DNA from: an uncultured Alphaproteobacteria bacterium
GTDB taxonomy: Bacteria > Pseudomonadota > Alphaproteobacteria > RF32 > CAG-239
Assembly: GCA_964017825.1 (NCBI GenBank)
Contig: CAXHMA010000001.1
Span: 193,115 to 257,114 of the forward strand
DNA length: 64,000 nt
Direction of reading: 5' to 3'
Position 1 is the first letter of the stretch, and every line of letters begins with the position of its first letter. A program made the translations under genes and the position numbers. The notes beneath the pieces are model-generated. The model worked only from the letters and a program-made list of their open reading frames with translations. It was not told the origin of the DNA and did not search any database. This document shows, one piece after another, positions 12,167 to 54,800 of the stretch.

Positions 12167-12205
12167 AAAAAAAATGCCGGCATCTCATTACCGGCATTTT
12201 TTCAT
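12167..12205. terminator. Intrinsic terminator downstream of secY (hairpin flanked by A/T runs on both strands)
   Basis: aaaaaaaatgccggcatctcattaccggcattttttc. Confidence 0.7.
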
Positions 12206-12214
12206 CATCAGACA

Positions 12215-13567: not shown

Positions 13568-13824
13568 TTTTATTTCCTTAAAATTATTACTTTTTGAGAT
13601 AAACAAAGGGATTCACCCCGGTTTTCGCATTAATTTAATACATAAAATTTAATTTTGCCTTTAAAAAGTAGTTTTTTTCCACTGACTTTTAAACTGCTCA
13701 TAACCGAAGCCGTGTATATATTGGAGATACATACTAAAATGTATAAAAAAACATATTGCATTGCCTGATGATAATATATAGAATAAACACGGCTGATAAA
13801 ATAATAAAAAAGAGGAAAATTGTA

Positions 13825-15201
13825 ATGTCAAAGATTAAATATACAAGTCTGGGCATCGGCTTGGGACTTTTAACCGCAGGCACTACCATAACAATCGGCA
13901 CATCTGCATCTGCGGGAGACAACGACGGGTCAACCCGAACCGGCGGAAAAGAAATATCCCTGCCCCGTCTGCCTCATTCCGATATTGTTTCGGATACGGT
14001 AAAACGCTGCGCACGGAAAGTCTATCACAGGTTTGAAGAAATCCCCGCCATATCGGACGAAGAAGCGCTTATGTATGATAAAAGCGAATATACATATATC
14101 ATAAACGCCGACCGTTATCAAAAAAGCGGAGAAATTGAATTAAAACGCGTTTTAACGGACGAAATCAGCAAAGCAAATATATTAAGTCTGATTTACCGCA
14201 GCGAATGCGCGACTTACGTTCCGAGCGAAAACGAAGACCAAATGGCAAAATATATCATAGATTTCAAAATCATAAACCCTACCGGAGCATTCAAAGGCCC
14301 GTCGCAGATGGATGATGTCGCCGTTGCCTCGTTTATAAAATATCTGGCCGTAAACCCTGCCACGCGGCAAAATGTATTGCCTCTTTTAAAATATAATAAA
14401 CCGCGTCACTCTGATGCGCCGCAAACCCTCACAGATGCATTAGACTCGCTTGAACAGTCATGTTATTCGGATTCTGCCGTCATGCTGCCGCTGAAACAAC
14501 GCCTGTCTGTCCTTACCGATAAAGTTTATCAAAACATCCGCCTCAACAGCCTGGCATGGAAAAATATTGCTTCGCCCGAATTAAAAAAATACATTGCAAG
14601 AGAAGAAGCAAAACGGCATAAAACATTAAGCAATACGACCAAAAACTTTTTATGTTTAAGCGAACTGTTTCCCGATAAAGAACAACTGACAAAAGAACTT
14701 GAAACATATAACCTGACGACGTTCCCGATCGGACGCAAAGGAACTCCCAAAGAAATTATGGCAACACTCGCACAAAGTATGGATTTGAAAAACGACAGCG
14801 GCAACCTTGACGCGACACGCATTCCGCTTTTCGCCATAGCAGCATCCGTAAGTACGGTCAATTGGCACGGAAACGGCCTGGGTGCCGTCAAAGATGCCCA
14901 AAATTTCAAAAAAATCTATCAAAAAGATCCCGATAATTTTCTTCCGGCCCTGACATTGATTGCCAAAAAATGGACGGCGGGCAAAAGTCGGAAATACGGC
15001 GTCAACGAATTGCGTCAAATGAATATGATTACCCCGGACATCATAGAGCAATTCCTTTCTATGGAACTTCCCGGCGCCGCAGAATTGGCAAACAGATACA
15101 AAGAAGCCGTTGAACGGGAAGAAATAAAAATCTCCCCCAAAACTCAAGAACTCAATTTGCTGGCATTAACCGGAATGAAATACGGCAATCTCAAAAGTTA
15201 A
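13825..15201 (+). CDS. Hypothetical exported protein (~458 aa from the MSKIKYTSLGIGLGLL start, AGAGGA RBS)
   Basis: N-terminal signal peptide. No recognisable domain. Inserted between secY and trmB. Confidence 0.6.
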   Translation: MSKIKYTSLGIGLGLLTAGTTITIGTSASAGDNDGSTRTGGKEISLPRLPHSDIVSDTVKRCARKVYHRFEEIPAISDEEALMYDKSEYTYIINADRYQKSGEIELKRVLTDEISKANILSLIYRSECATYVPSENEDQMAKYIIDFKIINPTGAFKGPSQMDDVAVASFIKYLAVNPATRQNVLPLLKYNKPRHSDAPQTLTDALDSLEQSCYSDSAVMLPLKQRLSVLTDKVYQNIRLNSLAWKNIASPELKKYIAREEAKRHKTLSNTTKNFLCLSELFPDKEQLTKELETYNLTTFPIGRKGTPKEIMATLAQSMDLKNDSGNLDATRIPLFAIAASVSTVNWHGNGLGAVKDAQNFKKIYQKDPDNFLPALTLIAKKWTAGKSRKYGVNELRQMNMITPDIIEQFLSMELPGAAELANRYKEAVEREEIKISPKTQELNLLALTGMKYGNLKS

Positions 15202-24631: not shown

Positions 24632-25225
24632 ATGGCTTTCAAAAACCTGACCAAAACGATTTATGATAAAACGCTGAATTTGGCATCCCGCCCGCATGCC
24701 CTGTGCTGGCTGGCGGCCATTTCTTTTATTGAGAGCTCATTCTTTCCGATTCCCCCGGATATCATGATTATCCCTATGGCCTTGGCCGCTCCGCAAAAAG
24801 CGTATAAAATTGCTGCGGTTGCAACAATATCAAGTGTGCTCGGCGGTTATTTCGGCTATGTCATCGGCCTGTACGGATTTGAGCTGGTTGCCCGCCCGCT
24901 TCTGGAATTTTACGGATACATGGCGCAATTTGCCAAATTTGAATCTTACTACCATAATTACGGCGCATGGATAGTTTTCGGCGCCGGTATCACACCTTTC
25001 CCCTACAAAATTATCACCATTGCCAGCGGCGCCGTTCATCTGAATTTGGCAGTGTTCACGGTTGCATCCGTTCTTGCCCGCGGCATACGCTTCTACCTTA
25101 TCGCATGGCTGTTGAAAAAATTCGGCGAACCGATGAAAGGATTCATAGAGAAAAACCTCAATCTGCTCTCAATCCTCTTCCTGCTTCTGCTCATCGGCGG
25201 ATTCGCCGTTATCAAATGGCTCTGA
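24632..25225 (+). CDS. DedA/YqaA-family membrane protein
   Basis: 'SSFFPIPPDIMIIPMA' DedA signature. Confidence 0.8.
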   Translation: MAFKNLTKTIYDKTLNLASRPHALCWLAAISFIESSFFPIPPDIMIIPMALAAPQKAYKIAAVATISSVLGGYFGYVIGLYGFELVARPLLEFYGYMAQFAKFESYYHNYGAWIVFGAGITPFPYKIITIASGAVHLNLAVFTVASVLARGIRFYLIAWLLKKFGEPMKGFIEKNLNLLSILFLLLLIGGFAVIKWL

Positions 25226-26342
25226 TAAATTCACAAGACAATCGACTTATCAAATTGCGCAGAAATCCGGTATATTTTCCCAAATCAGTTTCTGCAATTC
25301 TTTCTTCCGCCGTATGCGCCAGCGCTTCATCCCCTGCCCCGCAGATAAAGGTTTCAATCCCCGCTTCCTGAAAAAATCCCGCTTCGGTTGCATAAGGCAA
25401 AGACAATTTTTCGGTATTCAAAAGCGACAGCGCTGTTTCTGCCAAACGGGAATTTTCCATGCGCACAAACGCAGGCAGCGTTTCAAACGCTTCCGTTGTT
25501 ACCGAAGCTCCGGCATATTCCCTGCTCAGTTCTTGGCAAAATGCTTCCATTTGTGTTAAGATGAAATCTTTGTGTTCAGCCTCAATATAACGCATTTCCC
25601 AATCAATATATGCTTCATCGCTGATTGAATTCCGCTCTTTCCCGCCGCCGATAACACCGACATTCAAAGTCGTTCCTAATGGCATATATTGCGCATTCAG
25701 TTTCTCAATAAACGTTATCATCTTCGCAGCAATATAATTCGCATTCACCCCCAAATCCGGTCGGCTGGAATGCCCTGCTTTTCCTTTTATTAAAGTTCTG
25801 TATCCGGCAAATCCTTTATTTGCAACGCACACCCGAAACCCCGTCGGTTCGCCGATTAAAGCATATTGCGGCGCGATATCATTCTTCTTCATAAAAGAAA
25901 TAATTTCCCTAATTCCGCAAACATCAGTTTCTTCATCCGAAGTAAAAGTCAGAATAATCGGAAATCCGGCTTTTTTTAATTCACCCGGCTCATGCAGCAC
26001 AACTGCTGCAAAATACTTCATGTCAACCGTTCCGCGCCCCCAAAGCAGACCTTCCGCCGCCGTAGGTTGAAAGGGCGGCACCTGCCATTCTTTTTCATTG
26101 GCACCGACCGTATCGATATGCCCCGATAAAATCAGCCCGCCTTTGATGTTTTTTAACTCTCTGACGTTAAGCGCTGCGATAATACTTTCTTTATTGCTTC
26201 CCGCATGGCGCAAACGTGCATATAAAATACCGTTTTTCTCTAAAATCGCACAGATATAATCAATACATTTCCTGATGCCGTTCTCATCGCCGTCTGTTTT
26301 AAAAGCAATCAAATCCGCCAAAATATCTCTTACATCTGCCAT
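25212..26342 (-). CDS. M20-family metallopeptidase/deacylase (ArgE/DapE-like)
   Basis: 'GHIDTVGANEKEWQVPPF', 'GRGTVDMK', 'SDEE' metal-binding motifs. Confidence 0.85.
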   Translation of the reverse strand: MADVRDILADLIAFKTDGDENGIRKCIDYICAILEKNGILYARLRHAGSNKESIIAALNVRELKNIKGGLILSGHIDTVGANEKEWQVPPFQPTAAEGLLWGRGTVDMKYFAAVVLHEPGELKKAGFPIILTFTSDEETDVCGIREIISFMKKNDIAPQYALIGEPTGFRVCVANKGFAGYRTLIKGKAGHSSRPDLGVNANYIAAKMITFIEKLNAQYMPLGTTLNVGVIGGGKERNSISDEAYIDWEMRYIEAEHKDFILTQMEAFCQELSREYAGASVTTEAFETLPAFVRMENSRLAETALSLLNTEKLSLPYATEAGFFQEAGIETFICGAGDEALAHTAEERIAETDLGKYTGFLRNLISRLSCEFIRAI

Positions 26343-26346
26343 GGCT

Positions 26347-27228
26347 TCACCTTTCGCTGTTATCATCTTTGGCTTTAACCGGAATCAGCTCTATGTCTTT
26401 AATACCTTTTGCTGTTTGCTTTCCTCTTTCAGCCGAAATAAGTTTCATCCCCGGCGTCTGTACCGGACAATCCGACATATAAAGCAAATTATACCCGCCC
26501 TGATATGCTACCTTTGAGCATGTATATGCCCCCATTCGGCCTAATTGTGTTCGCAACACATCTGCCGCATCATCAAGTTTGTCAGCGCGCGAAAAATCAA
26601 ACGTCAAACTCCTGCATTCACCGGGATACTGTTCGGCGCAATTCCTGTAAAACGTCATATACATTGTTTTTTCACCTTCCGCACCGTTGCGCCCGTCAAC
26701 AAAACCGATAAAATTCAGTGTATGCGATAACGTTAAAAAACTGGCCCGATTCCGATATTCGCAGTCAGCATAAATCCCTTTGGCACCATATGAATGCAAT
26801 GCACTTAAAGCAACATTAACCAGCTTTTTGGCAACACCTTTATTGCGGTATTCACTCGCCACCATAAGCCCGGAAAGTCCGTAACATGCTCCGGCTGTTT
26901 TTTCTTCCTGCTTCGGCAGCACAAAAAAAGGATACGGGAATTCCAAACGTTTCAGCTTCGCCACCCCCATAAGTTTATTTCCATTGCCGAACATCCCGAC
27001 ATAACAGCTGTCAGTAGATAAAATGCCTTCTTTTACTTCCTCAGCAGACGGAACATACAAAAACTCCTGACACCCGTCATACGATTCATAAAGGCGGCAA
27101 ATATCCCCGACATGCTCCTCGCCCAGCATACGGCAATCACAATCCGCAACCGGACTGTTGCCGTTTTTTGAAGCAAGCCTTACCGCTTCCCGGCTGTGTC
27201 GAATACACTCCGAAAAATTTTCTAACAT
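26347..27228 (-). CDS. GNAT-family N-acetyltransferase with a ~120-aa C-terminal extension
   Basis: Acetyl-CoA motif 'EYRNKGVAKKLV'. Confidence 0.7.
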   Translation of the reverse strand: MLENFSECIRHSREAVRLASKNGNSPVADCDCRMLGEEHVGDICRLYESYDGCQEFLYVPSAEEVKEGILSTDSCYVGMFGNGNKLMGVAKLKRLEFPYPFFVLPKQEEKTAGACYGLSGLMVASEYRNKGVAKKLVNVALSALHSYGAKGIYADCEYRNRASFLTLSHTLNFIGFVDGRNGAEGEKTMYMTFYRNCAEQYPGECRSLTFDFSRADKLDDAADVLRTQLGRMGAYTCSKVAYQGGYNLLYMSDCPVQTPGMKLISAERGKQTAKGIKDIELIPVKAKDDNSER

Positions 27229-28979: not shown

Positions 28980-30446
28980 TCAAAAAGGCTTAAACAATCT
29001 GTCCCATTCCACATTGTTGCTGACAATAAACGCCGCTGCAACGCAACAGTAAGTATATGTAATTAAAGCGTTAATTGTAATACTTCCTATCTGACGCACA
29101 AAAAAATGACGGTATTTTTTAATAACCCGATGCAGAAAATTAAAAAATAAGATATACACAATCAGCTGTCCCGAAATGCCGATACCTGCCAGCGCATTTT
29201 CGTATTCCATGGCAATCCGCGGAAAAAAAGTCATCAGCAGACTGTACAGCATAATCAAAATATACGCTGTGCGCATAGCCCTTTTTTCACTCTGGCGTTT
29301 ATGAATTTTATCTTCCTTCAAACTTTCCTTGGAGAGCTTTCCGACTTCAAACCCGCGGATTTTTTTAGGTTCGGAACTTTTTTCCTTAATGGTTTTCAAG
29401 TTAGATTTCAACCGTTCTTCGGCGACGCATAAGCCGCAGCCCTTATTGGTAAAATACGCATGATTCGGATTCTTTTTACAGGTTTTAATGTTTTTCAGAA
29501 GAAAATCCAGTTCCGCCTGCCACTCTATGGCTGTCGGACGTTTCTGCCCTTTCACGAAAGCACGGTCAAAAAGTTTGAGCGTACTCTGCGGCAAAAAAGC
29601 ATGAATACTGTACGGATGCGGCGCCTGATAATCATCACCCCACATACCGTATGCATAATGGTAATGTTCGATGCGCTCCTGAATGGACAGCGCAGTATCC
29701 GAAGTTTTTTTGACCACGCCCGAAAACGGATGAATACCGTTATTAAGCAATTTAAAAATAATAACCGCCAGAGCAAACTTATCCTGCTCTTCGCCCATTT
29801 CTTCGCAGCCCTGCGTCATCCCCTCGGGATAAATATATTCCTCGCTCACAAACTCTGCCGGAAACCGCGCCTGTTCTCCCTGAATGGAAAAACCGTCGCA
29901 ATCAAAAACCGCCACCGTCATTGTTTTTTTGTAAATGGAAACATTCGCAGGTTTTAAGTCAATAATATAATGTCCGTAGCGGTGCAATGACGCAACCATC
30001 AGCGCCACGTTATATGCCGCCATAACACGGTACTCATACTTGTCGCTTAACCCGAGTTTTGCCCGCACCGCGCTCTGCATTAAATGGTCTAAAGAAACCG
30101 CTTCTTTGGTATTGATAAACGGCATGACATAGCCCACGCAATACCCTTCGTCGTCTTCCAAAACCGCTTCCGGCCACGCAATCTGCACATACTCAACCCC
30201 GCCCGCGGTAACGCTCGGTATTTGCGGGTTATTCATAACCATGGCTTCCAGCTTCAAACGGTTTGTATTGCTTTTTTGCCGTTCATGAAAGATTTTGGCA
30301 ACCTTGGCCGGCTGTCCGGCAATCTCATAAACTTTGCCGGCGGCGCCGCCTTTATTTAAAAGTCCGCCGAGCGTCAGCCGTTCAAAATGTCTGTCCGCAT
30401 AAATGGCATTATAGCTCAAATTTTTCTGTTCCGCAGCTTCGCTCAT
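28980..30446 (-). CDS. Hanks-type Ser/Thr protein kinase-like protein with C-terminal transmembrane helices (TerY-P triad kinase)
   Basis: Gly-loop 'GGAAGKVYEI', Lys 'VAKIF', catalytic loop 'IIDLKPANV', DFG-like 'DCDGF'. ATG overlaps the PP2C stop (ATGA). Confidence 0.8.
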   Translation of the reverse strand: MSEAAEQKNLSYNAIYADRHFERLTLGGLLNKGGAAGKVYEIAGQPAKVAKIFHERQKSNTNRLKLEAMVMNNPQIPSVTAGGVEYVQIAWPEAVLEDDEGYCVGYVMPFINTKEAVSLDHLMQSAVRAKLGLSDKYEYRVMAAYNVALMVASLHRYGHYIIDLKPANVSIYKKTMTVAVFDCDGFSIQGEQARFPAEFVSEEYIYPEGMTQGCEEMGEEQDKFALAVIIFKLLNNGIHPFSGVVKKTSDTALSIQERIEHYHYAYGMWGDDYQAPHPYSIHAFLPQSTLKLFDRAFVKGQKRPTAIEWQAELDFLLKNIKTCKKNPNHAYFTNKGCGLCVAEERLKSNLKTIKEKSSEPKKIRGFEVGKLSKESLKEDKIHKRQSEKRAMRTAYILIMLYSLLMTFFPRIAMEYENALAGIGISGQLIVYILFFNFLHRVIKKYRHFFVRQIGSITINALITYTYCCVAAAFIVSNNVEWDRLFKPF

Positions 30447-31216
30447 TGCAGTCCTGCCCATAAAAACGTTTTGTCATCCGAATTGAGCCTGCAGGCTTTT
30501 TGTGCATTCAGCGTATTGTTAAGAGCCTTAAGCGCACGTTCTCTGTCAGGCTCGTCGTTGAGATACCGGTTAATCGGCTCGATGAACCCTTTTTTAAGCC
30601 GATGAAAATCATCCGACAGCGCAAAATTAGTTACCCCGTCCGTCATCAAAAACAAAGCGCTTGCCTTTTCAAATTTTGTAAACCGCAGACATTCTGTCCA
30701 GTTCTTCATCGTATAAAAATATGTCTCGCAGGAAAAATTTCCGTTTGCCGGCCGCGACAATGTATAGTCGGTATAGTTTTCAGCACCGTGCAGAGCGATT
30801 CCCGCCCCGTCTCCGATATGAAAAAACACGCCGTTTTTCTTATGACAGACCACGCCGACAACCGTCGCCGAAAAATTCAATATTTCTTCTTCTCTTTTAC
30901 TTTTGTTCAGCCTGTGAATGAGCAGCCTTTCGCGCACCGATTCTATCACCCGCACCACAGCCGGTTCCACATCTTTTAACGGCGTATTAATCAAAGTATT
31001 GACCAACGCTTCGCAAATCATTTTCGCACCGATTTTACCGTATTTGGCAGAGCCGGCACCATCAGAAACCACGGCCGCCAATTTATTGCCCGAACAGGCA
31101 TATTGATAAAAATCCTGACACGGAAGTTTCTTTGCCGTATGCAGCCCCCCCGTCAGTTTTGTCGCGATAACCCTTATGTTTTTAGGCTTCCTCTTCATTC
31201 CAGCCCTCAATGTCAT
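30443..31216 (-). CDS. PP2C-family Ser/Thr phosphatase (TerY-P triad phosphatase)
   Basis: 'VVSDGAGSAKYG' and 'FLMTDGVTNF' metal-binding motifs. Confidence 0.8.
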   Translation of the reverse strand: MTLRAGMKRKPKNIRVIATKLTGGLHTAKKLPCQDFYQYACSGNKLAAVVSDGAGSAKYGKIGAKMICEALVNTLINTPLKDVEPAVVRVIESVRERLLIHRLNKSKREEEILNFSATVVGVVCHKKNGVFFHIGDGAGIALHGAENYTDYTLSRPANGNFSCETYFYTMKNWTECLRFTKFEKASALFLMTDGVTNFALSDDFHRLKKGFIEPINRYLNDEPDRERALKALNNTLNAQKACRLNSDDKTFLWAGLQ

Positions 31217-31880
31217 CCAATATGTCAGGCATATTCGGCGCCGCGCGGGAAATGCATGAAACGCTGCGCGACAACCACAGGAAAAACTCCGTAAACTTTA
31301 ACCCGCTCAAACGCTTCGGCGACATCAGCGAAAACTTCGCAAGTTTATCCAAATTGGCCCCCTGCGTTCCAACGGCATGAATAACCACCTTCTTGTTTTG
31401 CTGCGCCTCGCGGCATTTTGCCGCCGCCTGTTCCCAGCCGTAATCCGTCGGTTCACCGTCGCTGATTAAAAAAATCCATGGCCGCTTTGAGGTAATACCG
31501 CAGCTGTCATACAAACATTTTTGTTCTTCAATTTTTTGCAGCGCCAGTTCCATGGCTTTACCGATAGGCGAAAGCCCCGAAGCCTCCATAACAGGTGCCG
31601 AAAAATTCATTGCGTCAATCCAATCTGCGGAAATCTCAGCATCGTCTTTACCGTAAGCTTTAATCACCAAAAGCTGAACGCGCGAACTTGCGTCAATATC
31701 TTCTTTGAGCTCTTTCTCCAACGCCTGCAAACCGGTATTCAGCTGCTTTATCGGTTCACCGCGCATAGACCCCGAACAGTCCAAAACCAAAATACACGGT
31801 GTCCGCTCATTGGCATTTTCCGCAAATTCCACATACGGAATCATGACATCCGAAAAATCATCATTGCTGCTTTTATCCAT
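31182..31880 (-). CDS. von Willebrand factor A domain protein (TerY-like)
   Basis: MIDAS 'VLDCSGSM'. 'ISDGEPTD'. Overlaps the PP2C gene start. Confidence 0.8.
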   Translation of the reverse strand: MDKSSNDDFSDVMIPYVEFAENANERTPCILVLDCSGSMRGEPIKQLNTGLQALEKELKEDIDASSRVQLLVIKAYGKDDAEISADWIDAMNFSAPVMEASGLSPIGKAMELALQKIEEQKCLYDSCGITSKRPWIFLISDGEPTDYGWEQAAAKCREAQQNKKVVIHAVGTQGANLDKLAKFSLMSPKRLSGLKFTEFFLWLSRSVSCISRAAPNMPDILDDIEGWNEEEA

Positions 31881-32141: not shown

Positions 32142-32675
32142 ATGGCTTTATTATACCGCTTGCTCGTTCTCTTGCTTTTTATCTCTTTTAACGCCGCGGC
32201 ATACAGCGGTCCCAAAGGCTTATACACGCTGCAATATCCGGTTGATATGCCCAATGTCGCCCTGACATCCGAAACCGGAAAAGAAATATCTTATTTAAAC
32301 ACATCGGCTGATTTGACCATCATGATTTTTTGGTCACAAAGCTGCGCCCCCTGCCTGCGCGAAATGAAAGCATTGGAAAAATTCTATCCCGTGGCAGCCA
32401 AAGACAATATCCGCGTTATGCTCGTTTCGCCGGCATCGGAATGGAACAGCAATGAGGAAGAGCGCAAGTTCCTCACAAAATTCGGCGCGCCGACCCTCCC
32501 GTTTTATAACGACAATAACAACAAACTGTCATTAAGCCTCGGCATCGGCTCAACCCCGTACACCGTCATCATGAACAAACACGGCAAAAAAGTTGCCACC
32601 ATTCAGGGCGAAGCAAACTGGTCTTCGGAAAAGCTTTATAAGATGATTAAGAAGCTGATGAACTCGGAAAGTTAA
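32142..32675 (+). CDS. TlpA/ResA-like periplasmic thiol-disulfide oxidoreductase (thioredoxin fold)
   Basis: Signal peptide. 'WSQSCAPCLRE' CxxC motif. Confidence 0.75.
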   Translation: MALLYRLLVLLLFISFNAAAYSGPKGLYTLQYPVDMPNVALTSETGKEISYLNTSADLTIMIFWSQSCAPCLREMKALEKFYPVAAKDNIRVMLVSPASEWNSNEEERKFLTKFGAPTLPFYNDNNNKLSLSLGIGSTPYTVIMNKHGKKVATIQGEANWSSEKLYKMIKKLMNSES

Positions 32676-33235
32676 TCTCCCGAACGCTCTGCCTGCATAA
32701 GCGCCAAGCGCAAATGCGGCTGTGCGGCATATTTTTGCCGCTCATAAAAGCTTCTCCTGATTTCCTTGAGTCTGGCCAAACGTTCTGCCTTTTCTGCCGC
32801 CTGCAAAGCCTGCTCTTCCTGCAGACTTTCAGCATACCCTTTTTTGCTGCTGGCTTCAACCAATTCGTTATTGCATTCAATCAATGACTCATGGATAGTT
32901 TGAAAGTCCCCTTTCTTTCTCATCTCCGCAAAAGCTGCCAAAATAAGTGGATCAATCTTTTCGCGGATTTTCGCCTGCGCCTGCCGTGCATAAAAATCGC
33001 GATGATACGTATAAACCAATCTGACGCTTCCGTCTCTGGCTTCGCGTATCATAATACCGCGCCCTGCGCTGCACAGGCTTTCAAGCTTATCATCGCCATA
33101 GCGCTTCTTCTGCATTTTCAACATGACCTCATGCGAACAAAAACCGTCACGGCATATATCTACAAAAAACTTTTCCGGATTTTTCGGATTACGGCTGCAA
33201 ACAACGCGATATGATACAATCATTGAAGTATACAT
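32672..33235 (-). CDS. Hypothetical protein (start placed at MYTSM with an AAAGG RBS)
   Basis: ORF only. Confidence 0.45.
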   Translation of the reverse strand: MYTSMIVSYRVVCSRNPKNPEKFFVDICRDGFCSHEVMLKMQKKRYGDDKLESLCSAGRGIMIREARDGSVRLVYTYHRDFYARQAQAKIREKIDPLILAAFAEMRKKGDFQTIHESLIECNNELVEASSKKGYAESLQEEQALQAAEKAERLARLKEIRRSFYERQKYAAQPHLRLALMQAERSGD

Positions 33236-33401
33236 GAATTTTAACCTTTCAGAATCTTTTATTTTTTCTGCATGATACATGATTATTTTTTAAAGTAAAG
33301 TATTTTGTCTAAAATTTATGTCAAAAAAAATCATCAATCTGACCGACAATTTCAGGATAAAAAAAGGAGGCTGCGCCCCCTTTAATTTTTTTTCAATCTG
33401 A

Positions 33402-34859
33402 TTATTTAATTTCAAGTTCTTTCTGGTTTTTGCCTTCGGCAGCATACTTCTCCAGCACAACCGCCGCTTTTTTCGGCATGGACAAACACCCCGGACCGGC
33501 AATGCATCCGCCTTCGCAGCTCATCACTTCCAGCATATTGCAACCGTCATCAAGTCCTTTAAGTGCATATTTCTTTAAATTTTTAACATTGTCTTTGGTC
33601 AAACCGTTAATCGCAAACGGGCGATAATCCGCCTTGCCGTCAATCAGGTTGGCAACAGCCGCCGCCACACCGCCGGAAAGCGCATATCGCCTTGATTGCT
33701 GAGACGCTTCATCAGCAAACGCAGACGCATCCAATGCATTAATGTCAATGCCTTTGGCCTCAAACATTGCCTGAATATCGGCAAACACCAAAACATAATC
33801 TACATTCGGGTTGCTTTCCGCTTCAATGCGTTTGGCAAGACACGGCCCGACAAACACGGTTACCGCATCCGGATAACGCTTCTTTGCGATTTCTGCCGTA
33901 TAATACATCGGGCTTCCGGTGTGCGAAACAAATTTCTCAATCTCGGGCACATGAACCTTCGCCGTTTTTACATAAGCCGGACAACATGACGTTGTCATAA
34001 ACGGTGCACCTTCTTCCATACGCTCGACAAATTCCGCCGACTCATTTTTAGATGTATATTCCGCACCGTAAGCCACTTCAATCACATCGTCAAAACCCAG
34101 CGCTTTATATGCGGCTATCACCTTGCCCAAATCATTGCCGAACTGTCCTAAAATGGCCGGCGCCACCATGGCAACCACTTTCTTTGCCGGATTCTTAATT
34201 GCATTCAGTACATCAATCATCTGCGAATTATAAACAATCGCACCGAACGGGCAGGATTGCAGACACTTGCCGCAGGATATGCACTTGTCAATATTAACTT
34301 CTTCCCTTCCTTCCGCATCTTTGCTGATGGCATTTACCGGACAAATTTCTTCACAGGGAACAACTGATTTATGGATGGCCCCATAAGGACAATAGCCCGC
34401 GCACAGCCCGCACTTGATGCACTTCTCCTGGTCAATCACTGCTTTATCCGTAACAGAAATTGCCTTCTTGGCGCAGTTTGCCTCGCACGGGCGTGCCACA
34501 CAGGCCTGACACATCGGCGTTACTTCAAACATTTTCGAACGGCAGGCATTGCACGCCGCTTTAATGACGGAAATCCCCGCCCGCGGCGCCTGAGTACGCG
34601 CCATCGCTTCTTTAACAAACTCATCCAAATCGCGATTCGCATCAACTTCCTGCGCCAAAAAGCCCATTGCCGCCAAAATCTGCCCCTTAACGGCAGCTTT
34701 TTCCGTCTCCGGATTGCGGCGGGCATTCTGCATAACCGATAATTCTGCCCAAACTTGGTTAATATCAGCCAATCCGTTCTCAATAAAAGATTTTGCCACT
34801 CTTTTTATAATTTCCGCACGAATTGGTGCCACATTGTTTTTTGCTGCAAGCATAGACAT
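33402..34859 (-). CDS. [FeFe]-hydrogenase-like protein: Cys-rich N-terminus plus 2x[4Fe-4S] ferredoxin domain plus H-cluster domain
   Basis: Ferredoxin motifs 'CIKCGLCAGYCP'/'CISCGKCLQSCP'. H-cluster motifs 'TTSCCPAY' (L1), 'GPCLAKRIE' (L2), 'EVMSCEGGCIAGPG' (L3). Confidence 0.75.
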   Translation of the reverse strand: MSMLAAKNNVAPIRAEIIKRVAKSFIENGLADINQVWAELSVMQNARRNPETEKAAVKGQILAAMGFLAQEVDANRDLDEFVKEAMARTQAPRAGISVIKAACNACRSKMFEVTPMCQACVARPCEANCAKKAISVTDKAVIDQEKCIKCGLCAGYCPYGAIHKSVVPCEEICPVNAISKDAEGREEVNIDKCISCGKCLQSCPFGAIVYNSQMIDVLNAIKNPAKKVVAMVAPAILGQFGNDLGKVIAAYKALGFDDVIEVAYGAEYTSKNESAEFVERMEEGAPFMTTSCCPAYVKTAKVHVPEIEKFVSHTGSPMYYTAEIAKKRYPDAVTVFVGPCLAKRIEAESNPNVDYVLVFADIQAMFEAKGIDINALDASAFADEASQQSRRYALSGGVAAAVANLIDGKADYRPFAINGLTKDNVKNLKKYALKGLDDGCNMLEVMSCEGGCIAGPGCLSMPKKAAVVLEKYAAEGKNQKELEIK

Positions 34860-35043
34860 GTCCTCAAAAGATAGTTACGATAGAAACAGTATAGCGCGCA
34901 ATTTAGAAGATTTCTTTAAAAATGCAAGAAAAAACATAATATTTTATTTCTGTATTACTTTTCCCTTGACGAATAGACAAAAATATGCTAAAAAAGCACT
35001 TAATCAAATATATATATATCTAAATAATTAAACAAAAAACACT

Positions 35044-35709
35044 ATGACTAGTTTTACGATTGGCGGAATCCCTTATCGGATTCTCGACATAGAAGCGGAA
35101 CGAGGCGCGCGCATCCCGCATGCCGAGCAGTACAAACCTTTCACCGAAAGAGCGCTGGAAGAAATAAAGGACATGCCGAACCACGAAAAAAATCACCAAT
35201 TTCTGGTGGCCTATTCCGTCTATGGCGATACATTCATCACCGCAGACCCGAACACTATCCTGCGCTTAAGCTTAGCCGGACAAGTCTACAACAACAGCAT
35301 CAGAAGGATGACACTGTGCGACGTACTGGCCGTCTTTTATCATGACGGTAAAAAATTTCGCCCGTTCAAAAGCTGGGAACTGCGTCATTTCAACAGCAAC
35401 GACGCCCCCGCATTCCTGGACAAGGAAAATCTGGAAGCACAACTGAAAGGAGTATTCCGCAAGGTCGACATTACGCTAGGCGCGCTGACCCTCACTACCC
35501 GATCCGTTACCTGCCCTGCCTGGCAAATTGTGACCGATAAGGGAACATACTATCTGCCTTGGCATAATGGAACAATCATCGAGGAAGACCCTGCGTTTTC
35601 CTTTGAGGAAAAAGATTTTGCCGAAATCCAAGAAACGCAGTATTACACACATCTGCGTTTCAGCAAAATCCCTCTCAGCAATCAGGCTTTCAACATCAAA
35701 AGCTGCTGA
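35044..35709 (+). CDS. Hypothetical protein (221 aa)
   Basis: ORF only. Confidence 0.5.
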   Translation: MTSFTIGGIPYRILDIEAERGARIPHAEQYKPFTERALEEIKDMPNHEKNHQFLVAYSVYGDTFITADPNTILRLSLAGQVYNNSIRRMTLCDVLAVFYHDGKKFRPFKSWELRHFNSNDAPAFLDKENLEAQLKGVFRKVDITLGALTLTTRSVTCPAWQIVTDKGTYYLPWHNGTIIEEDPAFSFEEKDFAEIQETQYYTHLRFSKIPLSNQAFNIKSC

Positions 35710-35749: not shown

Positions 35750-38700
35750 TTAAAAGGCTGCCGAAACTCCGACAATTCCGATATAATCCGTCAAACCTTT
35801 TTCGCCGTCTGCATTAAACCGCGCTGAAACCTTTCCCGTCAGGCTCAAATCTTCATTCGTTTTACCCTGATAGTACAAGCCGACATCATATTCTTTCGCT
35901 CTCGGTTTGAGCGATGTCGTCAATTTTTGCATATATATCGTATCGCTTGCCGAATCCCGCCCGTTCGCATACATCAGTGAAGCTTTGCCTTTCACAACCG
36001 AAAGCGGCGAAGAAAAACTTAACCCTATTTTATCTGTCTTGTTCAATAAATATTCGCCCGCAAGCATAAAACTCTCGCTTTCCAGATCCGATATCGCCAG
36101 CATCGGCGCGTCCGCCCCCTGCGTATAACCGCGGTAATATGCCGCAGACAGCAGAATATTCGGGGTTAGGTTCAGCGCCGCCCTGACCCCCATATAATAT
36201 GTGGAACTGTCTTTAATACCGAATGCGCCGCTGCCGTTCATACCCAACAGAGCATTGTCCTCATAGAGCATACCGCCGAGCGCCGCCACTTCCAAATAGT
36301 CTGTCATGCCGAAGCTGTATTCGCCGCTGAATGCATAAGCCCTGTCGTCAAACGAATGATTATCTTGTTCATAATCCCTTTCATACAGCCCGTTTTCACC
36401 GGTTTGCAAAGACAATTTAAGCTTGGAACTATCGCTTAATTTCAGCATATTCTCGGCACCATATGCCTCATTCATCGCCAAATACGGATTTGAAGACGGT
36501 GATAACACATTGTCCTGAGACATATATTTACTGTTGACGGCATAATAAAAGCGCGTTGCACCGTCTACCGTCTCGCTGACAACTTCCGCAACCGCCAGAT
36601 TATTCTTTCCCCCTTTGTCCAGCGTCTCTTCCGAAGCAAATTGAAAACCCGTTTTCTCATCTTTAACCACGCGTTTGCCGTTGCCCGCCGCCATTCTGGA
36701 AACGGCATTGCGCAAATCGGCATTGGAAGCATGCGTCTGATTGACAATATTTTTTGTATCATACTCAAAAGGCCGGTTAAGAGCATCAAACGCCGTCACT
36801 TTTTCCGGCATCGCGGCCATCAACTTATTCTGTACCGCCGAAGATAAGGCAAGTTTGGAACCGGAAACCGGCAAAACCTGCTCAAACGATGTTTGCGTCG
36901 GCAGTCCCAACCCGCCGATAGGCGTCGTAACCGCCGCATTCAAATCCAAAGCACCCCTGCCGTATTTGTCGCTGTTGGCATACTCGCCTTGATTATTCGC
37001 CGTTTCCAATAAAAGATACGCAACATTCTGCGCCGAAAGCCATGGATAATACCCGTTTAATAAAGCAATACTGCCCGTAACAACAGGTGTAGACATAGAC
37101 GTCCCCGATTTACCGGTAAATCCGTCTTTCATCGGCGCCGTGGATTCAACCGATGTCCCGGGGGCCGCCAGACAATAGCCTTTCGTTGAACCGCACCAGT
37201 TGGCATAACCGGCCAGTTTTCCGGAAGGCGCGTTTGCCGTTCTCGTATCATAATCAAGCGCCGTAACGGCAATAAAGGGAGCTTCATATTTTTTCGGGCC
37301 CGCATATCCTTTATCAGACAAATCCAATCTGCCCATACCGGTATGCAGATTAGATTCATGCTGCATTTCGTTTCCGGTAGCCTGCACCCATACCGCGCCG
37401 TTTTTCGCAGCATAAACATAAGCTTCCAACTCATTGCTGCCACGCAGTTTTTCAGCAGTTGTCGCATTATTTTCCGAGGTAACATCAACACCCCAGCTAT
37501 GGTTTAACACTTTAACCCCGCTATCCACCATGCTGGTAATAACAGGCTTGATATCCTGTTTCAAATCCCAGCTGGCCGCCACAAGCTCCGCATTGTCAAA
37601 CGCCACACCGTGTATGCCGTTATTATTTTTATTTGCGGCAATAATCCCGGCAACATGCGTTCCGTGGCTTAATTGGTCGATAATATTAAGCCAGCTGTTA
37701 ACAAAAACTTCCGGTCCCGTATTTATATCCGTAATAAGACCGGACATATCCGCTCCGGGATTGTGCCCGTTTCCGCTGTTTATCAATGCCAATTCACTAA
37801 ACGGTATATTCCATTTTTTCTCCACTATATTTTTCATTTCCGCTTCGCTCAAACCCAGCGTGTCATTTGCGTTTGTATAATATGTAACAATGTCGGCATC
37901 ATGAAAAACATAATACTTTGAGCCTTTCTTTATAACATAACCCTGTCCCCAGCCGTCGCGGGAAACGCCCCAAACCGAGCTATCGTTATTATAAGGGTTT
38001 GCATCTATACCGGAAACAATTTTTCCCGCCAAATCTTTATTGGCATACACACCGGAATCCAAGACGCCGACTTTAATTTTTTTCAATGCCGCTTCACTGT
38101 CTGCCTGATGACTGAACACCGCACCTGTCAGATCTTTGCGGAAGATATGGCTGTATGCGTCTGCTGCCTTGATACCTTCCAAAAAATTAGTGCGCTTATA
38201 TTCTTCTGTTCTGAATTCATCCGGCGCCATATCATCCAAATGGCCGACAGGATCTTTGACTTCGCCTCCGGGCGTTTGCACCTCGCCGCTGACGTGAGAA
38301 TGTCCGCCGCCTCCGCTGCCGGCCAATGCGGCTATTCCCGCACCGGCAGCAACAACACCGGCGGCAGCCCAATAATAACTGTTATCATTTTCAAAAAATC
38401 CGGCAGACTTTCTGAATTTAGGCTGCGTTTGATAATTGCGTTCCGCTTGCCGGAAAGCAGGAGCCTCTTCTTCCGCAACATTTTCCGCACATTTCTGAGC
38501 CGTATTCGCGCCGTATTTCTTTAACAGTTCGAGCGCTTTTTCATCATTACTCCGCAAGGCAAAGCAATAAGCCGTATTGCCGCGGGCATCCTTAATATCA
38601 ACGGCACCTTTGTACCTTGACAATGCGCGGAAATAATCATGATTGCCGGCCTGTGCCTGCTTATAAATAAGGCCCGCACTGACAGACGCGGCCGAAGCGC

Positions 38701-38764
38701 TCGGCATATACCCGCCGCAAAGAGAAATCACACCCCAAAATAATAAAGTTTTTCTAGAAATCAT
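35750..38764 (-). CDS. Autotransporter with an N-terminal ankyrin-repeat module and an S8 subtilisin-like protease passenger
   Basis: Signal peptide. ANK 'DARGNTAYCFALRSNDEKALELLKKYGAN'. S8 triad motifs 'GVLDSGV', 'HGTHVAGI', 'GTSMSTPVV'. C-terminal beta-barrel ending in F. Confidence 0.85.
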   Translation of the reverse strand: MISRKTLLFWGVISLCGGYMPSASAASVSAGLIYKQAQAGNHDYFRALSRYKGAVDIKDARGNTAYCFALRSNDEKALELLKKYGANTAQKCAENVAEEEAPAFRQAERNYQTQPKFRKSAGFFENDNSYYWAAAGVVAAGAGIAALAGSGGGGHSHVSGEVQTPGGEVKDPVGHLDDMAPDEFRTEEYKRTNFLEGIKAADAYSHIFRKDLTGAVFSHQADSEAALKKIKVGVLDSGVYANKDLAGKIVSGIDANPYNNDSSVWGVSRDGWGQGYVIKKGSKYYVFHDADIVTYYTNANDTLGLSEAEMKNIVEKKWNIPFSELALINSGNGHNPGADMSGLITDINTGPEVFVNSWLNIIDQLSHGTHVAGIIAANKNNNGIHGVAFDNAELVAASWDLKQDIKPVITSMVDSGVKVLNHSWGVDVTSENNATTAEKLRGSNELEAYVYAAKNGAVWVQATGNEMQHESNLHTGMGRLDLSDKGYAGPKKYEAPFIAVTALDYDTRTANAPSGKLAGYANWCGSTKGYCLAAPGTSVESTAPMKDGFTGKSGTSMSTPVVTGSIALLNGYYPWLSAQNVAYLLLETANNQGEYANSDKYGRGALDLNAAVTTPIGGLGLPTQTSFEQVLPVSGSKLALSSAVQNKLMAAMPEKVTAFDALNRPFEYDTKNIVNQTHASNADLRNAVSRMAAGNGKRVVKDEKTGFQFASEETLDKGGKNNLAVAEVVSETVDGATRFYYAVNSKYMSQDNVLSPSSNPYLAMNEAYGAENMLKLSDSSKLKLSLQTGENGLYERDYEQDNHSFDDRAYAFSGEYSFGMTDYLEVAALGGMLYEDNALLGMNGSGAFGIKDSSTYYMGVRAALNLTPNILLSAAYYRGYTQGADAPMLAISDLESESFMLAGEYLLNKTDKIGLSFSSPLSVVKGKASLMYANGRDSASDTIYMQKLTTSLKPRAKEYDVGLYYQGKTNEDLSLTGKVSARFNADGEKGLTDYIGIVGVSAAF

Positions 38765-45326: not shown

Positions 45327-45345
45327 GATAGATTATATAATAAAC

Positions 45346-45508
45346 GGACTGCCCTTCGCGTATTGAACCGCATATCTTCCGGGCCAACACTACTTAATAG
45401 GGAGCTGTCTCTGTCAGAATCGTGGTTCTGTTATATGGCGCCCACCTTATCTTGCGGGTATCGGAAAGAATGATACATATACGGTCCGGGCGGTCCGCCT
45501 CATATTTT
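45346..45508 (+). ncRNA. ssrS: Candidate 6S RNA (ssrS) downstream of zapA
   Basis: 5' GGACUGCCC pairs with 3' GGGCGGUCC, enclosing ~130 nt, followed by a U-run. Position matches the conserved zapA-ssrS synteny. Confidence 0.4.
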
Positions 45509-46358: not shown

Positions 46359-46868
46359 TTATTTTGCTCTGATGTTATAAAGCACACCGTTCTCACGGTA
46401 GAGCGTTGCTAATCGCAAATGGTCTGTCAAATCTGCTAAATCTTGCCAAGGCCACCCGCTTCTTATTATGTCAAGTTCCACGGCTGTACAGGATTTACCG
46501 TTTTTAATCACCGAATTTACAGTAACCTTAACTTTGCGCACTTTTCTTTTAGAATTACCGTTATACCTGGCAATTTCCTTGCCGTTAAAACTATAAACAA
46601 CGACATCATCGCCTTTACAAAAAACAAAGACTTGAACATTCTCATCAATCAAAAGCTTATCGTAATTCTCTTCAAGGACAACTCCTTTCTTGCGCAGTCC
46701 GTAAAGAGTTTTACTCGTACCCCAACTGTAATAATACGTTGAAGTAACAAGCTCGGCGTTGCTGCCGTATGAAGTGTAAGTTAAATCAACCTTAACTTCC
46801 TGACTCCGTGAGTATGCGCTTAAAGCAACACACATCATTACAAAAAGAACAAAAAATAATTTTTTCAC
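46359..46868 (-). CDS. Secreted 169-aa protein, paralogue A
   Basis: Signal peptide. ~35-40% identity to the neighbouring 47033-47542 product. Confidence 0.7.
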   Translation of the reverse strand: MKKLFFVLFVMMCVALSAYSRSQEVKVDLTYTSYGSNAELVTSTYYYSWGTSKTLYGLRKKGVVLEENYDKLLIDENVQVFVFCKGDDVVVYSFNGKEIARYNGNSKRKVRKVKVTVNSVIKNGKSCTAVELDIIRSGWPWQDLADLTDHLRLATLYRENGVLYNIRAK

Positions 46869-47032: not shown

Positions 47033-47542
47033 CTATAACTCTGTGGCTTTTTCACCTTCAATCAGGAATAACCTGCCGTAGGTACGGCAAAATGTTCCCA
47101 GCTCAATTTCACGATACCCCAAAGAAGTATCGCCTTTTCGCGGCGTACAACAGAATTTTACGGTTTTATAGACATATGAACCCTTAAAAGACGTAACAAC
47201 CATCATACTCCGCTTGTCAAAACGGTCACATCTCTGGTCTTGGGCTTCAACTTTCGCTAACTCTTTACCGTCTCTCACTCTGTAAACGGCAGCATATTTT
47301 TCATTAAAAAAGATAAATACGCGCAAGTTTTCCTCAACCATAAGTTCACAGTCTTGCACAAGAACAATCCCGTTTTTGCGCAGCCCGTACAGCACGCTGC
47401 TTTTACCGCCGTTGAAATATGTGGTTGTCACAAGATCAACGCCTTGGCCGTATTCGGTGTGGGTAACGTCCACTTTATCACCGGCTGACGCGCCCAAAGC
47501 AACGCACAAAACGGCAATAAACAAAACAATAATTTTCTTCAC
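47033..47542 (-). CDS. Secreted 169-aa protein, paralogue B
   Basis: Signal peptide. Shares its upstream leader sequence with paralogue A. Confidence 0.7.
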   Translation of the reverse strand: MKKIIVLFIAVLCVALGASAGDKVDVTHTEYGQGVDLVTTTYFNGGKSSVLYGLRKNGIVLVQDCELMVEENLRVFIFFNEKYAAVYRVRDGKELAKVEAQDQRCDRFDKRSMMVVTSFKGSYVYKTVKFCCTPRKGDTSLGYREIELGTFCRTYGRLFLIEGEKATEL

Positions 47543-47708: not shown

Positions 47709-48164
47709 TTACCGTACGGGGTGAGCGTAATTATAGCAGCTCATAACCAAATCTTCTTTTTTGTAAAACACTTTGTATGCCGCATACAGAAGCGAAAGTA
47801 CAATTGCCGCCATATAAACGTCATAAACCGGCATATAGTTGTTTAAGAAGACTGTCATGCTGTCGGAACCTGTCGTAAAGTAGTCTACGATCAGCGACAC
47901 AATGGCATAGATGACTGAAAAATACGGTATCCACCCGATAGAGGCTAAAAATACGGAAAGCCGCGGAAAGTTTTCATTCATCCGGTGAACGAATCCCCAG
48001 GATGAAATGAAAGACAGCGAGAGCGCCAATACCGCAACCCAGAACAAAACGTACAACACACCGCCCATGGCATAACTCAACTGTGTGTTAAACAGGGCAA
48101 TGATGAATGCCAGCAGCTGATACATGCCACCGAGCAGCAAAAGTTCATTTCTGCATATTTTCAT
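47709..48164 (-). CDS. Hypothetical membrane protein (4 TM helices)
   Basis: ORF only. Confidence 0.5.
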   Translation of the reverse strand: MKICRNELLLLGGMYQLLAFIIALFNTQLSYAMGGVLYVLFWVAVLALSLSFISSWGFVHRMNENFPRLSVFLASIGWIPYFSVIYAIVSLIVDYFTTGSDSMTVFLNNYMPVYDVYMAAIVLSLLYAAYKVFYKKEDLVMSCYNYAHPVR

Positions 48165-48467
48165 AATGACCTCCTTAAAATGAGATGATACACAAAAATC
48201 ACCATAAAACACATATGCACGCCGCACACCGCTTCCAACCTAGGCTTTCGTCGGTATAAGGTTATAGCAAAAAGTCTGCCCGCCGTCCGAAACAGCGGGC
48301 TTATCGTCAACCGCTGGATTGCCGCGTCGCTCCGCTCCTCGCAATAACTCACAAAAAAGCGAGCCAAACTGACTCGCTCTAACTCTTTCATAAAAATAAG
48401 GGGCAGAATTTCTCTGCCCCTGCAATGGGTGGGATAAAGCACATCCCCCTATCGTAAAAACACGATA

Positions 48468-51880: not shown

Positions 51881-54800
51881 TCAGAAATTGCACCGAACGC
51901 CCAAACCGCCCTCAACATTGCTCTCTTTTTCGGCATTATGCGCAATTTCCGCCGCCACCGAAAAATCTCCGTCTTTATAAACGGCTTCTGCCGATGTTCT
52001 GATTCTGTCTTTATTTTCGTCATACCCGTTGAGATGATAACGAACCGGTGAGCCGTTCATACCGACCGTCAAATCTTTATACGGGTCTAAAAATTCATGA
52101 TAGTACTTAACCCCGACAGCCAACATCAAAGAACGCTCCTTTGCCAAAGCAACGCGCTTGCGCAGCTTAACCCCGACACCGCTTTCCAGCGACAGCGAAT
52201 TATTCGCATGCAGATTCAGTCCCTCGTCCTCTTTGGCCTTAGACATTGAACTGCCTTGCAAGTTCAGCTCTGCCTCAGCCACCAGTTCTGCAACCTTCAT
52301 ATCTACGCTGTATTCGGCATGGTTGTACAAACCGTAATATAAATCAAGCGTATCTGCATCATAAGAGCCCGAAACGGCTTTTCTCTTATAAGAGCCATAG
52401 CCGACGCCAACCTCAGGCATGGCCAAAAACGTCATATTCCCGTTTTGATACATAATCGGCAAAAAGGCCATCAGTATTTTATTTTCTCTGCTTGAACGCG
52501 CTTCGTCATAATCCGCATCGGCATATGCCGCGCGCAAAGTGCCGCCCATACTCCAATTTCCGCTGAGCTTGCCGCCGAAACCTAAATATGCGCTGTATAC
52601 ATCGTCGGCATATCCGCTGAGCCCGCCGGAAGCGTCTTTGCCGGTCCGGTAATAATCAGCTCCGACAGACCTGCCGTTCAACCCGTCTTCCAGTATCCTG
52701 TTTTGTTCCTGCGTATTCAAACCGCGCAGAACCGCCATATTTTCCCTTTGCAGATTGGCATAAAACGTTTTACCGCTTTCTTTTTCCACTGTTGCATTAA
52801 ATTCTTTTTTATCTTCTGCAGCTTTCAATGCATTGAACATTTTTTCATTATTCTGCAAACCGTAATTCGTTTCAAAAAATGCGGCCAAATCTTTTTCTTC
52901 CACCAAATCATCAAAACTCTTGCGATTGAGCTCTACATCAACGGTATCGTTTTTATCTTTAAGTGAAGCGTCAAACATATACGATTCGGAAGAAACATTC
53001 AGCCCCTCGTTCCTCCCTGCGAAAGAATTCTGATTGGTATATGTATCGTCAAACCCGCCCGTCACGATATCTTTCCCGGCAACGACATCCCCTTTGAAAC
53101 TGTCTGCGGCATATGTTCCGCCCGATGCTATCACAAAAGCACCGCTCTCATCGCGTAACGTATCAAAATCAACATCCGTTTTACCGAAATCCGCCTGACC
53201 TTTGTTGACAAACGCAGCATTCTCACCGACAAATATCGGAGCATAGTCCGTCGGGCTGATTGATTTGGTTTTCTTATCCTCGCTTGCATCTTCACACGTC
53301 CCGCCGACACCTACATTTGCGCAATGTCCGCCTTTTTCGGAATCAAACATGATTTTCCCGCCGTTGATAAATTTACCGGAATTTGTTACATATGCGCCAT
53401 ATCCGCTTTCGGTTATTGCTATTGTGCCGTAATTTGTTGCAGTTGAAGACGCACCGTCAACATGTATACCTTTTCCGTTACCAACCGTAATCGTGCCGTT
53501 ATTGACTGCCGAACCGCTCGTAACATAAACACCCGTTCCATTGACAATCGTAATGTTTTTTGCATTATTGAAACGACCGCCTTCGACTTTAACACCCAAT
53601 GTATTGCCGTCAATAGTCCCCGAATTGGTGAAATCCCCTGTAACGACGACACCTGCACCGACACCGTTATTTGTAATAGAGCCGATATTACTGCCGGAAC
53701 CTCTTACGCCGGTTCCTGATTCATTAACGGTTATTGTTCCGCTGTTCTTTATATTGCCATCCACGCCGGTACCGTCGGAATAAACCTTAATTTCACCCTT
53801 ATTTTCCACTGCGCCGTAAACACCGGTACCGGAATTAACCGTAATGGTTCCGCCATCGTTTTTGGCGGTTGCTCCGGTATTGTAAATCCCGTAAGCAGAA
53901 TCACCGTTTACCACAATATCAGTATAATTGCGGACATTTCCCGCTACGGCATAAATCCCGATGCCGCTGTCATTAGCGGTAATTGTCCCGTTATTGGTAA
54001 CTTCTGCGGAAGAGCGAATACCTTCTGCTCCGCCGGAAGCGGTAATCTTACCGTTTTCATTATCAAAATGAGCCCCGTTGACAACTACAACACCCTTATT
54101 TCCGTCACCGGTAACGTTTATATTGCCTGTATTTGTTCCTAAGGTATAAGATATAGTCGTGCCGTCCGACAAATAAATACCCGTACCGCCTGTTACATTA
54201 ACGCTGCCGTTATTTTCCACCTGTGCGGCGTCTTCCGCTCTGATACCCGTTCCCCCGTCTGACACATTGATAGAGGATCTGCCGTCCGTACTTACAAAAG
54301 TTTGGGAATTCTGCCCGTACATACCGATAGTTTCGCTACCGGATACATTTAATGTGCCCTGATTATAGGCACTGCCGGCACTCCCGGCAGCAATCGCCAT
54401 CGTCCCGTTTTGAGCATAAACCGTTCCCTGATTATACACTTTTCCGTTGCTCGCGGCCACAAGCAGATGCGAATTGCTGCCGCTGACATAGGCCGTCGAG
54501 CCAAAACGAACTGACCCCGCATATGTTGCCTTGCCTAAGGTATAACCGTCCACCGTTATCGGGTCATCATAGCGCAAATTAAGCACCGCATTTTCATTAG
54601 CCCAAAAATATGTTGCGTTTTCCAAACCGCTCTGATGTGTAATAGTACCTGCTTCGGCAAGCACTGCATCTGCACCTTCAATCAAAAAAGCAGTCGTATC
54701 ATCTCCTTCAAGAGAAATTGTCCCGTAGTTATATGCTGTTCCGTTCTCCACGTACATTCCGACTGAATTGCTGCCCTTAACATGAATCTGCGGGTTATCA

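Follow-up and report, generated by a model that had tools for sequence, protein, structure and literature searches.

What does an apparently complete [FeFe]-hydrogenase gene do in an alphaproteobacterium when no maturase gene is visible around it? The question is raised by a 64-kb stretch of DNA from an uncultured gut alphaproteobacterium (the window, meaning that whole stretch). The original prediction had left two alternatives for the encoded protein: either the organism is anaerobic or microaerophilic and makes H2, or this is a sensory or HydA-like paralogue with another role. Our analysis supported the first, with a full-length, above-cutoff match to the B1 family, catalytic and relay residues that are invariant or consensus, and strong purifying selection; it spoke against the second. 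We consider it likely that the gene product is a cytoplasmic [FeFe] hydrogenase of group B (B1-type) that works as a single subunit and depends on ferredoxin, in an uncultured anaerobic alphaproteobacterium of the gut; it would serve ferredoxin-driven H2 evolution and be matured by enzymes encoded elsewhere in the genome.

The open reading frame (ORF) on the minus strand at 33402..34859 is a real one of 485 amino acids and encodes a complete [FeFe]-hydrogenase catalytic protein, with all motifs present and a complete Pfam Fe_hyd_lg_C domain (E = 1.8e-56) preceded by Fer4 (4Fe-4S ferredoxin) domains. Translation probably starts at the second ATG, at 34853, giving a protein of 483 amino acids, because a GAGGA sequence lies 7 nt upstream of this codon and the close relatives are all 483 amino acids long and begin ML[AT]AKNN; residues are counted from this second Met. 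The N-terminus has no signal peptide, and an exact-protein look-up showed that the sequence is not on record. Because a strong intrinsic terminator follows the stop codon and an AT-rich spacer of 184 bp lies upstream, the signals suggest that the gene is monocistronic. An Rfam scan of the window gave no match near it.

Two ferredoxin-type 4Fe-4S motifs (CxxCxxCxxxCP, residues 145-156 and 191-202) and the three H-cluster signature motifs (Table 1) were located by residue position, as originally described. The ferredoxin motifs belong to a longer accessory pattern, CxxC...CxxCx4Cx3C, CxxCxxCxxxCP, CxxxCP, CxxCxxCxxxCP, which includes eight further cysteines (C101, 104, 115, 118, 123, 127, 167 and 171). 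The 16 accessory cysteines would be enough for four [4Fe-4S] clusters, a predicted occupancy. An N-terminal Cys-rich segment had been called extra: it is present, but it is a feature of the family, the accessory cysteines being invariant in the homologues and the Bacteroides enzyme being collinear. Since the 16-Cys pattern agrees with what has been published on the group B enzymes of Bacteroides, the segment is a family trait. Ahead of it, the AlphaFold2 (AF2) model places helices at residues 8-26, 31-41, 48-62 and 76-85, with per-residue confidence (pLDDT) mostly >90. The protein ends about 28 residues past P3 and has no C-terminal small-subunit-like domain.

Family models gave a clear assignment. 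TIGR04105 (NCBIfam 'monomeric [FeFe] hydrogenase', FeFe_hydrog_B1) scored 469.8 bits against a curated cutoff of 450, with a match spanning residues 7-460, or profile positions 2-460 of 462. The group A model TIGR02512 reached 149.5 bits, far under its cutoff of 405.95, which places the protein outside group A. The P1 motif, TTSCCPA, is invariant in the family alignment and is not the TSCCCP of group B2. No HydB or HydC (NuoF/NuoE-like) partner genes lie beside the hydrogenase, whose flanks hold orphans, a redoxin and an S8 protease, so that at gene level it is monomeric. Judged by its sequence, the protein is a group B1-type monomeric [FeFe] hydrogenase, an ordinary member of a family common in gut bacteria; in one survey, 37% of human-gut bacterial species genomes hold the family (bioRxiv 10.64898/2026.06.24.733704).

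Conservation was assessed in an alignment of 28 homologues with 52-94% identity. Invariant in all of them are the 16 accessory cysteines, C290, C291, C338, C446, C450, K341, E271, E274 and S310; no conserved H-cluster cysteine is lost on alignment, an outcome that had been named as one that would count against the prediction. HMMER alignment to CpI, the group A1 enzyme of Clostridium pasteurianum, equates E271, E274 and S310 with E279, E282 and S319. At the position of CpI R286, Arg is the consensus of the family without being invariant, the other three of the four non-cysteine proton-relay residues being invariant. An AF2 model built from the homologue alignment had a pLDDT of 87.8 and a pTM of 0.86, and in a Foldseek search all of its top PDB matches were [FeFe] hydrogenases (CbA5H, CpI, HydABC HydA and DdH, E ~1e-18).

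Uncultured gut 'Alphaproteobacteria/Acetobacter sp.' metagenome-assembled genomes (MAGs) are the source of the nearest proteins (72-94% identity), and one member of this clade is named 'monomeric [FeFe] hydrogenase [Acetobacter sp.]' at NCBI. Single hydrogenase sequence variants of the clade occur on up to 300 contigs. The alphaproteobacterial context is supported both by the names of these closest homologues and by a TrcR gene in the window, TrcR being a regulator family described from alphaproteobacteria. Orthologues with 85-94% identity keep the gene order S8 protease, orphan, hydrogenase, orphan, redoxin, vWA-PP2C-kinase, NMO-like, among them that of GCA_001917135.1 'Acetobacter sp. 46_36'; around the 72% identical orthologue in L007, the upstream half of the neighbourhood is also conserved. 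Against relatives, at synonymous sites that are almost saturated, the ratio of non-synonymous to synonymous substitution (dN/dS) comes to 0.02-0.10. On these comparisons the gene is under strong purifying selection and vertically inherited in its clade.

Group C sensory (HydS-like) [FeFe] hydrogenases have a C-terminal PAS or other signalling extension and a signalling partner, and Nar1/NARF-like proteins have lost the diiron-site and proton-relay residues of the H-cluster. That the window protein is such a non-catalytic paralogue is extremely unlikely, and its domains and motifs all but refute the idea. The Pfam scan of the hydrogenase found no PAS or other signalling domain, which sets it apart from group C; P1-P3, K341, E271, E274 and S310 are kept and invariant, which sets it apart from the Nar1/NARF type; and the B1 model is above its cutoff with group A far below. 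Beyond the earlier suggestion itself, what speaks for a sensory role is a conserved kinase/PP2C/vWA operon ~1.5 kb away, but this module is absent beside the 72%-identical L007 orthologue. A probable sensory-type paralogue, in L010, also looks different: it has 585 amino acids, a TIGR04105 match confined to the H-domain (199 bits) and an extra PF04060 domain, and it lies beside a SpoIIE phosphatase gene.

The L010 locus (3899..11449, plus strand; hydrogenase 53% identical) merits description of its own. In this MAG, the genes ahead of the group B gene are AdhE, a 2Fe-2S thioredoxin-like gene, the 585-amino-acid paralogue, the SpoIIE phosphatase and a second small thioredoxin-like gene, an arrangement that looks like an H2-sensing regulatory cluster adjoining a group B enzyme.

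The closest known systems are the monomeric group B enzymes of gut Bacteroides (B1/B3, 'HydM'), also covered by TIGR04105, which have the same length and collinear layout as the window protein: a helical N-terminus, a 16-Cys four-[4Fe-4S] region, the H-domain and no C-terminal small-subunit-like domain, with the TSCCP, GPCxAKR and MxCEGGC motifs in the same form. A Bacteroides sp. protein with a TIGR04105 score of 532 bits, encoded in a hydA-hydE-hydG-hydF operon, aligned collinearly with the window protein across 464 amino acids (42% identity, 61% positives). The Bacteroides enzymes are described as having an H-domain with two [4Fe-4S] clusters and a small ferredoxin-like domain with two more; they bind the H-cluster and make H2 in dependence on pyruvate:ferredoxin oxidoreductase (PFOR) (Welsh et al. 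2025, PMC12578642). Unlike them, the window gene has an alphaproteobacterial host and stands alone with its own terminator, outside any hydA-hydE-hydG-hydF operon.

CpI (PDB 4XDC and others) and the window protein have in common the fold of the H-domain, the two proximal [4Fe-4S] clusters, every H-cluster ligand and the proton pathway C299/E279/S319/E282/R286; the window protein differs in overall sequence (~21-22% identity in structural alignment), in its N-terminal cluster domains, in lacking a C-terminal extension and in having Gly for Met353. The group B2 enzymes (CpIII, MeII and ToHydA) belong to the same broad group B but have TSCCCP where the window family has TSCCP. This triple cysteine defines subgroup B2 alone and is tied to Hinact formation and O2 protection, TSCCP being the commonest P1 in group B (bioRxiv 10.1101/2023.06.23.541094). 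Degli Esposti et al. (2016, PMC4967309) reported 'type A' [FeFe] hydrogenases from MAGs of alphaproteobacteria in the human gut (Acetobacter sp. CAG:977, Azospirillum sp. CAG:239 and CAG:260). These resemble the window protein in host type, habitat, the absence of a C-terminal small-subunit (SSU) domain and extra N-terminal FeS cysteines ('6/8C' subtypes). This is a likeness by description, and as the named MAGs are absent among the best 120 homologues of the window protein, they may belong to sister clades. A group B-type hydrogenase in gut alphaproteobacteria is a combination described in 2016, in a family characterised in 2025 and with orthologues already annotated; a literature search on RF32 hydrogenases found nothing specific.

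In the working model, PFOR, as the most likely donor, would reduce ferredoxin during fermentative pyruvate oxidation. Electrons from reduced ferredoxin would then pass through the accessory [4Fe-4S] clusters to the H-cluster, where protons delivered by the conserved Cys-Glu-Ser-Glu relay would be reduced to H2, disposing of excess reductant; the H-cluster itself would be built by HydE, HydF and HydG encoded elsewhere in the genome. Catalytic direction, the ferredoxin/PFOR partner and maturases in this genome are the parts that we infer, and the analogy with L009, where the orthologue adjoins PFOR, and with Bacteroides biochemistry suggests that H2 evolution is coupled to ferredoxin and PFOR. 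The enzyme might instead work physiologically in H2 uptake or bidirectionally, with gut H2 as a source of electrons for ferredoxin: catalysis by [FeFe] hydrogenases is reversible, catalytic bias varies among group B2 enzymes (bioRxiv 10.1101/2023.06.23.541094), and nothing in the window fixes the direction. We find this unlikely, given that the B1-type enzymes characterised in Bacteroides are H2-evolving and PFOR-coupled, that the L009 orthologue lies beside PFOR, and that the gene, apparently monocistronic, has no respiratory or bifurcating partner next to it (NuoE/NuoF-like genes are absent there).

Elsewhere in the window, an Fe/Mn superoxide dismutase gene (57840..58403, minus strand) lies beside an OmpR-type response regulator, which suggests defence against transient O2 in a predicted fermentative anaerobe.

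No hydE, hydF or hydG was found in the 64-kb window, either by a Pfam scan of ~50 ORFs of at least 150 amino acids or by tblastn in all six frames with HydE (three), HydG (two) and HydF (three) queries, in agreement with what had been noted from the sequence. The sole radical-SAM protein in the Pfam scan was MiaB (TIGR01574, 496 bits), and the sole GTPase was EF-Tu. The anomaly that this absence had seemed to imply did not survive comparison with other loci. Of 42 group B loci flanked by 5 kb or more on each side, 33 likewise lack a maturase gene within 10 kb and nine have one; for the window's clade the count was zero of five. The orthologue in the alphaproteobacterial MAG L009, at 54% identity, is part of a hydG-hydE-hydF-hydA-PFOR cluster whose HydE and HydF are above the NCBIfam cutoffs. 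The Alphaproteobacteria-like contig L091 has a hydG-hydE-hydF operon among housekeeping genes, all three above cutoff, and another such contig, L097 (GCA_947586835.1), a lone hydF. In Bacteroidales, hydA-hydE-hydG-hydF are kept together. Gut 'Acetobacter/Azospirillum CAG' MAGs have a short hydrogenase together with HydE, HydF and HydG, and most also list PFO (PMC4967309); the maturase accessions in these MAGs are mostly non-adjacent, which suggests separate loci. Because of the L009 cluster, the L091 and L097 contigs, the linkage count and this spread of accessions, the absence of maturase neighbours is no anomaly: unlinked maturases are the norm for group B, and a 64-kb window cannot show that they are absent genome-wide.

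Several observations weigh against a PFOR-coupled enzyme with maturases encoded elsewhere. The P2 motif has Gly where CpI has Met353, though this Gly is invariant across the family. Group B biochemistry comes from Bacteroides, and the alphaproteobacterial group B enzymes, including the window's clade, are known from genes alone. The 64-kb window holds no maturase, PFOR or ferredoxin gene, and a ferredoxin-motif scan of it found no electron-carrier ORF. Among the matches listed, no HydE, HydF or HydG could be tied to any genome from the window's clade (72% identity or more), and alphaproteobacterial HydF and HydG clusters occur on at most 54 contigs against up to 300 for the clade's hydrogenase variants. 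From this mismatch in abundance it follows that the clade's maturases, if present, are those of another lineage or rank below the matches listed. The HydG search found no named clade member among the matches listed, and member look-ups for 20 HydF clusters yielded neither accessions nor names. A scan of the genome collection with an alphaproteobacterial HydF alignment gave nothing above 43% identity among the matches listed, apart from yielding the Bacteroidales operons; as it did not recover L009's own genome either, it carries no weight on the clade.

Taken at face value, these absences would mean that the clade truly has no HydE, HydF or HydG, and that its protein either acquires the H-cluster by an alternative maturation route or uses its [4Fe-4S] clusters alone in some function apart from H2 catalysis. 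The five clade loci flanked by 5 kb or more on each side have no maturase within 10 kb, the window has none within ~30 kb on either side, and none of the best 120 HydF or HydG matches is assignable to the clade, whose hydrogenase they do not match in abundance. There are precedents: most archaeal genomes with [FeFe] hydrogenase, Giardia and Entamoeba lack maturases (PMC11216029), and R. rubrum was reported with a hydrogenase and without maturases (PMC4967309). We nevertheless regard a maturase-free clade as improbable. The maturase searches covered the listed matches and flanks, not whole clade genomes; unlinked maturases are usual in the family; related gut alphaproteobacterial MAGs carry all three; and the invariance of diiron-site and proton-relay residues, together with dN/dS values as low as 0.02, points to a functional H-cluster. 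The stronger proposition, that this abundant clade keeps an intact, constrained group B hydrogenase without any of the three and hence assembles or acquires the H-cluster independently of maturases in a bacterium, as has been proposed for most archaea with such hydrogenases, Giardia and Entamoeba, is very unlikely. If it were true that the clade lacks all three maturases, it would offer a tractable bacterial system for alternative H-cluster maturation, an open question (PMC11216029). With maturases encoded elsewhere, as we prefer, the gene is one more orthologue in a curated family already annotated in sister MAGs, and it supports the view of these uncultured gut alphaproteobacteria as fermentative H2 producers.

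Several candidate links between maturases and the clade were rejected. HydF P0145 and hydrogenase P0016 proved to come from different assemblies (GCA_947586835.1 and ERZ24773515), and HydF cluster P0164 has a Firmicutes-type context. Binning maturase contigs to the window by tetranucleotide frequency and GC content was unreliable: L005 agrees with the window in gene order and has a hydrogenase 94% identical to its own, yet it has 37% GC and a tetranucleotide correlation with the window of only r = 0.51. An M48-TPR protein common to L007 and L091 is only 36% identical between them, and the redoxin beside hydF in L097 has no similarity to the window redoxin at 1e-8. In L097 (7454..21149), the stand-alone hydF lies 10 bp downstream of that redoxin gene, in a region rich in genes for ankyrin-repeat proteins and with a phage terminase gene nearby.

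Table 1. Features of the hydrogenase gene and its immediate neighbours in the window (residues counted from the second Met)
Feature	Coordinates	Strand	Remarks
Group B1 monomeric [FeFe]-hydrogenase gene (by family model)	33402..34853	-	483 aa from second ATG; mechanical ORF to 34859
GAGGA ribosome-binding site	34861..34865	-	7 nt upstream of second ATG; relatives start at the equivalent Met
N-terminal helical region, residues 1-95	34569..34853	-	No cysteines; part of family model TIGR04105; collinear with Bacteroides enzyme
Accessory FeS region, residues 96-210	34224..34568	-	16 cysteines; Fer4 and LdpA_Fe-S-bd matches
H-cluster (catalytic) domain, residues 224-454	33492..34184	-	PF02906, E = 1.8e-56; Foldseek matches
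P1 motif TTSCCPA, residues 287-293	33975..33995	-	C290 = proton-relay Cys (CpI C299); C291 = [4Fe-4S]H ligand (CpI C300)
P2 motif GPCLAKRIE, residues 336-344	33822..33848	-	C338 = cluster ligand (CpI C355); K341 ~ CpI K358
P3 motif EVMSCEGGCIAGPG, residues 442-455	33489..33530	-	C446, C450 ~ CpI C499, C503
Intrinsic terminator	33363..33383	-	9-bp stem, 5 GC pairs, T-run; begins 19 nt past stop codon
TlpA-like redoxin	32142..32675	+	Signal peptide; hydrogenase neighbour
Orphan ORF	32672..33280	-	Hydrogenase neighbour
Orphan ORF	35044..35709	+	Hydrogenase neighbour

The periplasmic TlpA-like thioredoxin and the orphans that had been said to adjoin the hydrogenase were located, the redoxin and two orphan ORFs being listed in Table 1. 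Beyond them, at 1.5 kb from the hydrogenase, lies a tight three-gene cluster (28980..31880, minus strand) for a vWA protein, a PP2C phosphatase and a protein that resembles Ser/Thr kinases and has a membrane region at its C-terminal end; the cluster is kept with the 85-94% orthologues and absent beside that of L007. Genes for an M20 peptidase and a GNAT acetyltransferase (25212..27228, minus strand) lie between VTT-domain and NMO-like genes, and as the pair is missing at that position in L005 and L101, it points to a small lineage-specific insertion or deletion. In L001-L004 ('Acetobacter sp. 46_36' and related contigs), an 841-amino-acid autotransporter with a faint Chlam_PMP match (11801..14326, plus strand), absent from the window, is encoded directly downstream of the hydrogenase. 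GC content swings widely among close relatives: hydrogenases 94% identical have a GC content at third codon positions (GC3) of 0.49 in the window and 0.27 in L005, and, while gene order stays the same, the GC content of the locus varies between 36% and 48% (window versus L005, L101 and L001).

The window has other features as well. A 1,004-amino-acid S8 subtilase (35750..38764, minus strand) and a 1,837-amino-acid ORF (51881..57394, minus strand) have like N-termini, each with a signal peptide, one ankyrin-like repeat and a Trp/Gly-rich segment, and both are probably surface or secreted proteins; the longer one has no Pfam match, no PDB sequence match and no DNA tandem repeats. A 6S RNA (Rfam RF00013, 58.6 bits; 45343..45500, plus strand) lies just upstream of a YmdB-like phosphoesterase gene. 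Two tandem 169-amino-acid ORFs (46359..46868 and 47033..47542, both minus strand), with no Pfam match, are paralogues at 37% identity; another ORF nearby (47709..48227) has only 19% identity.

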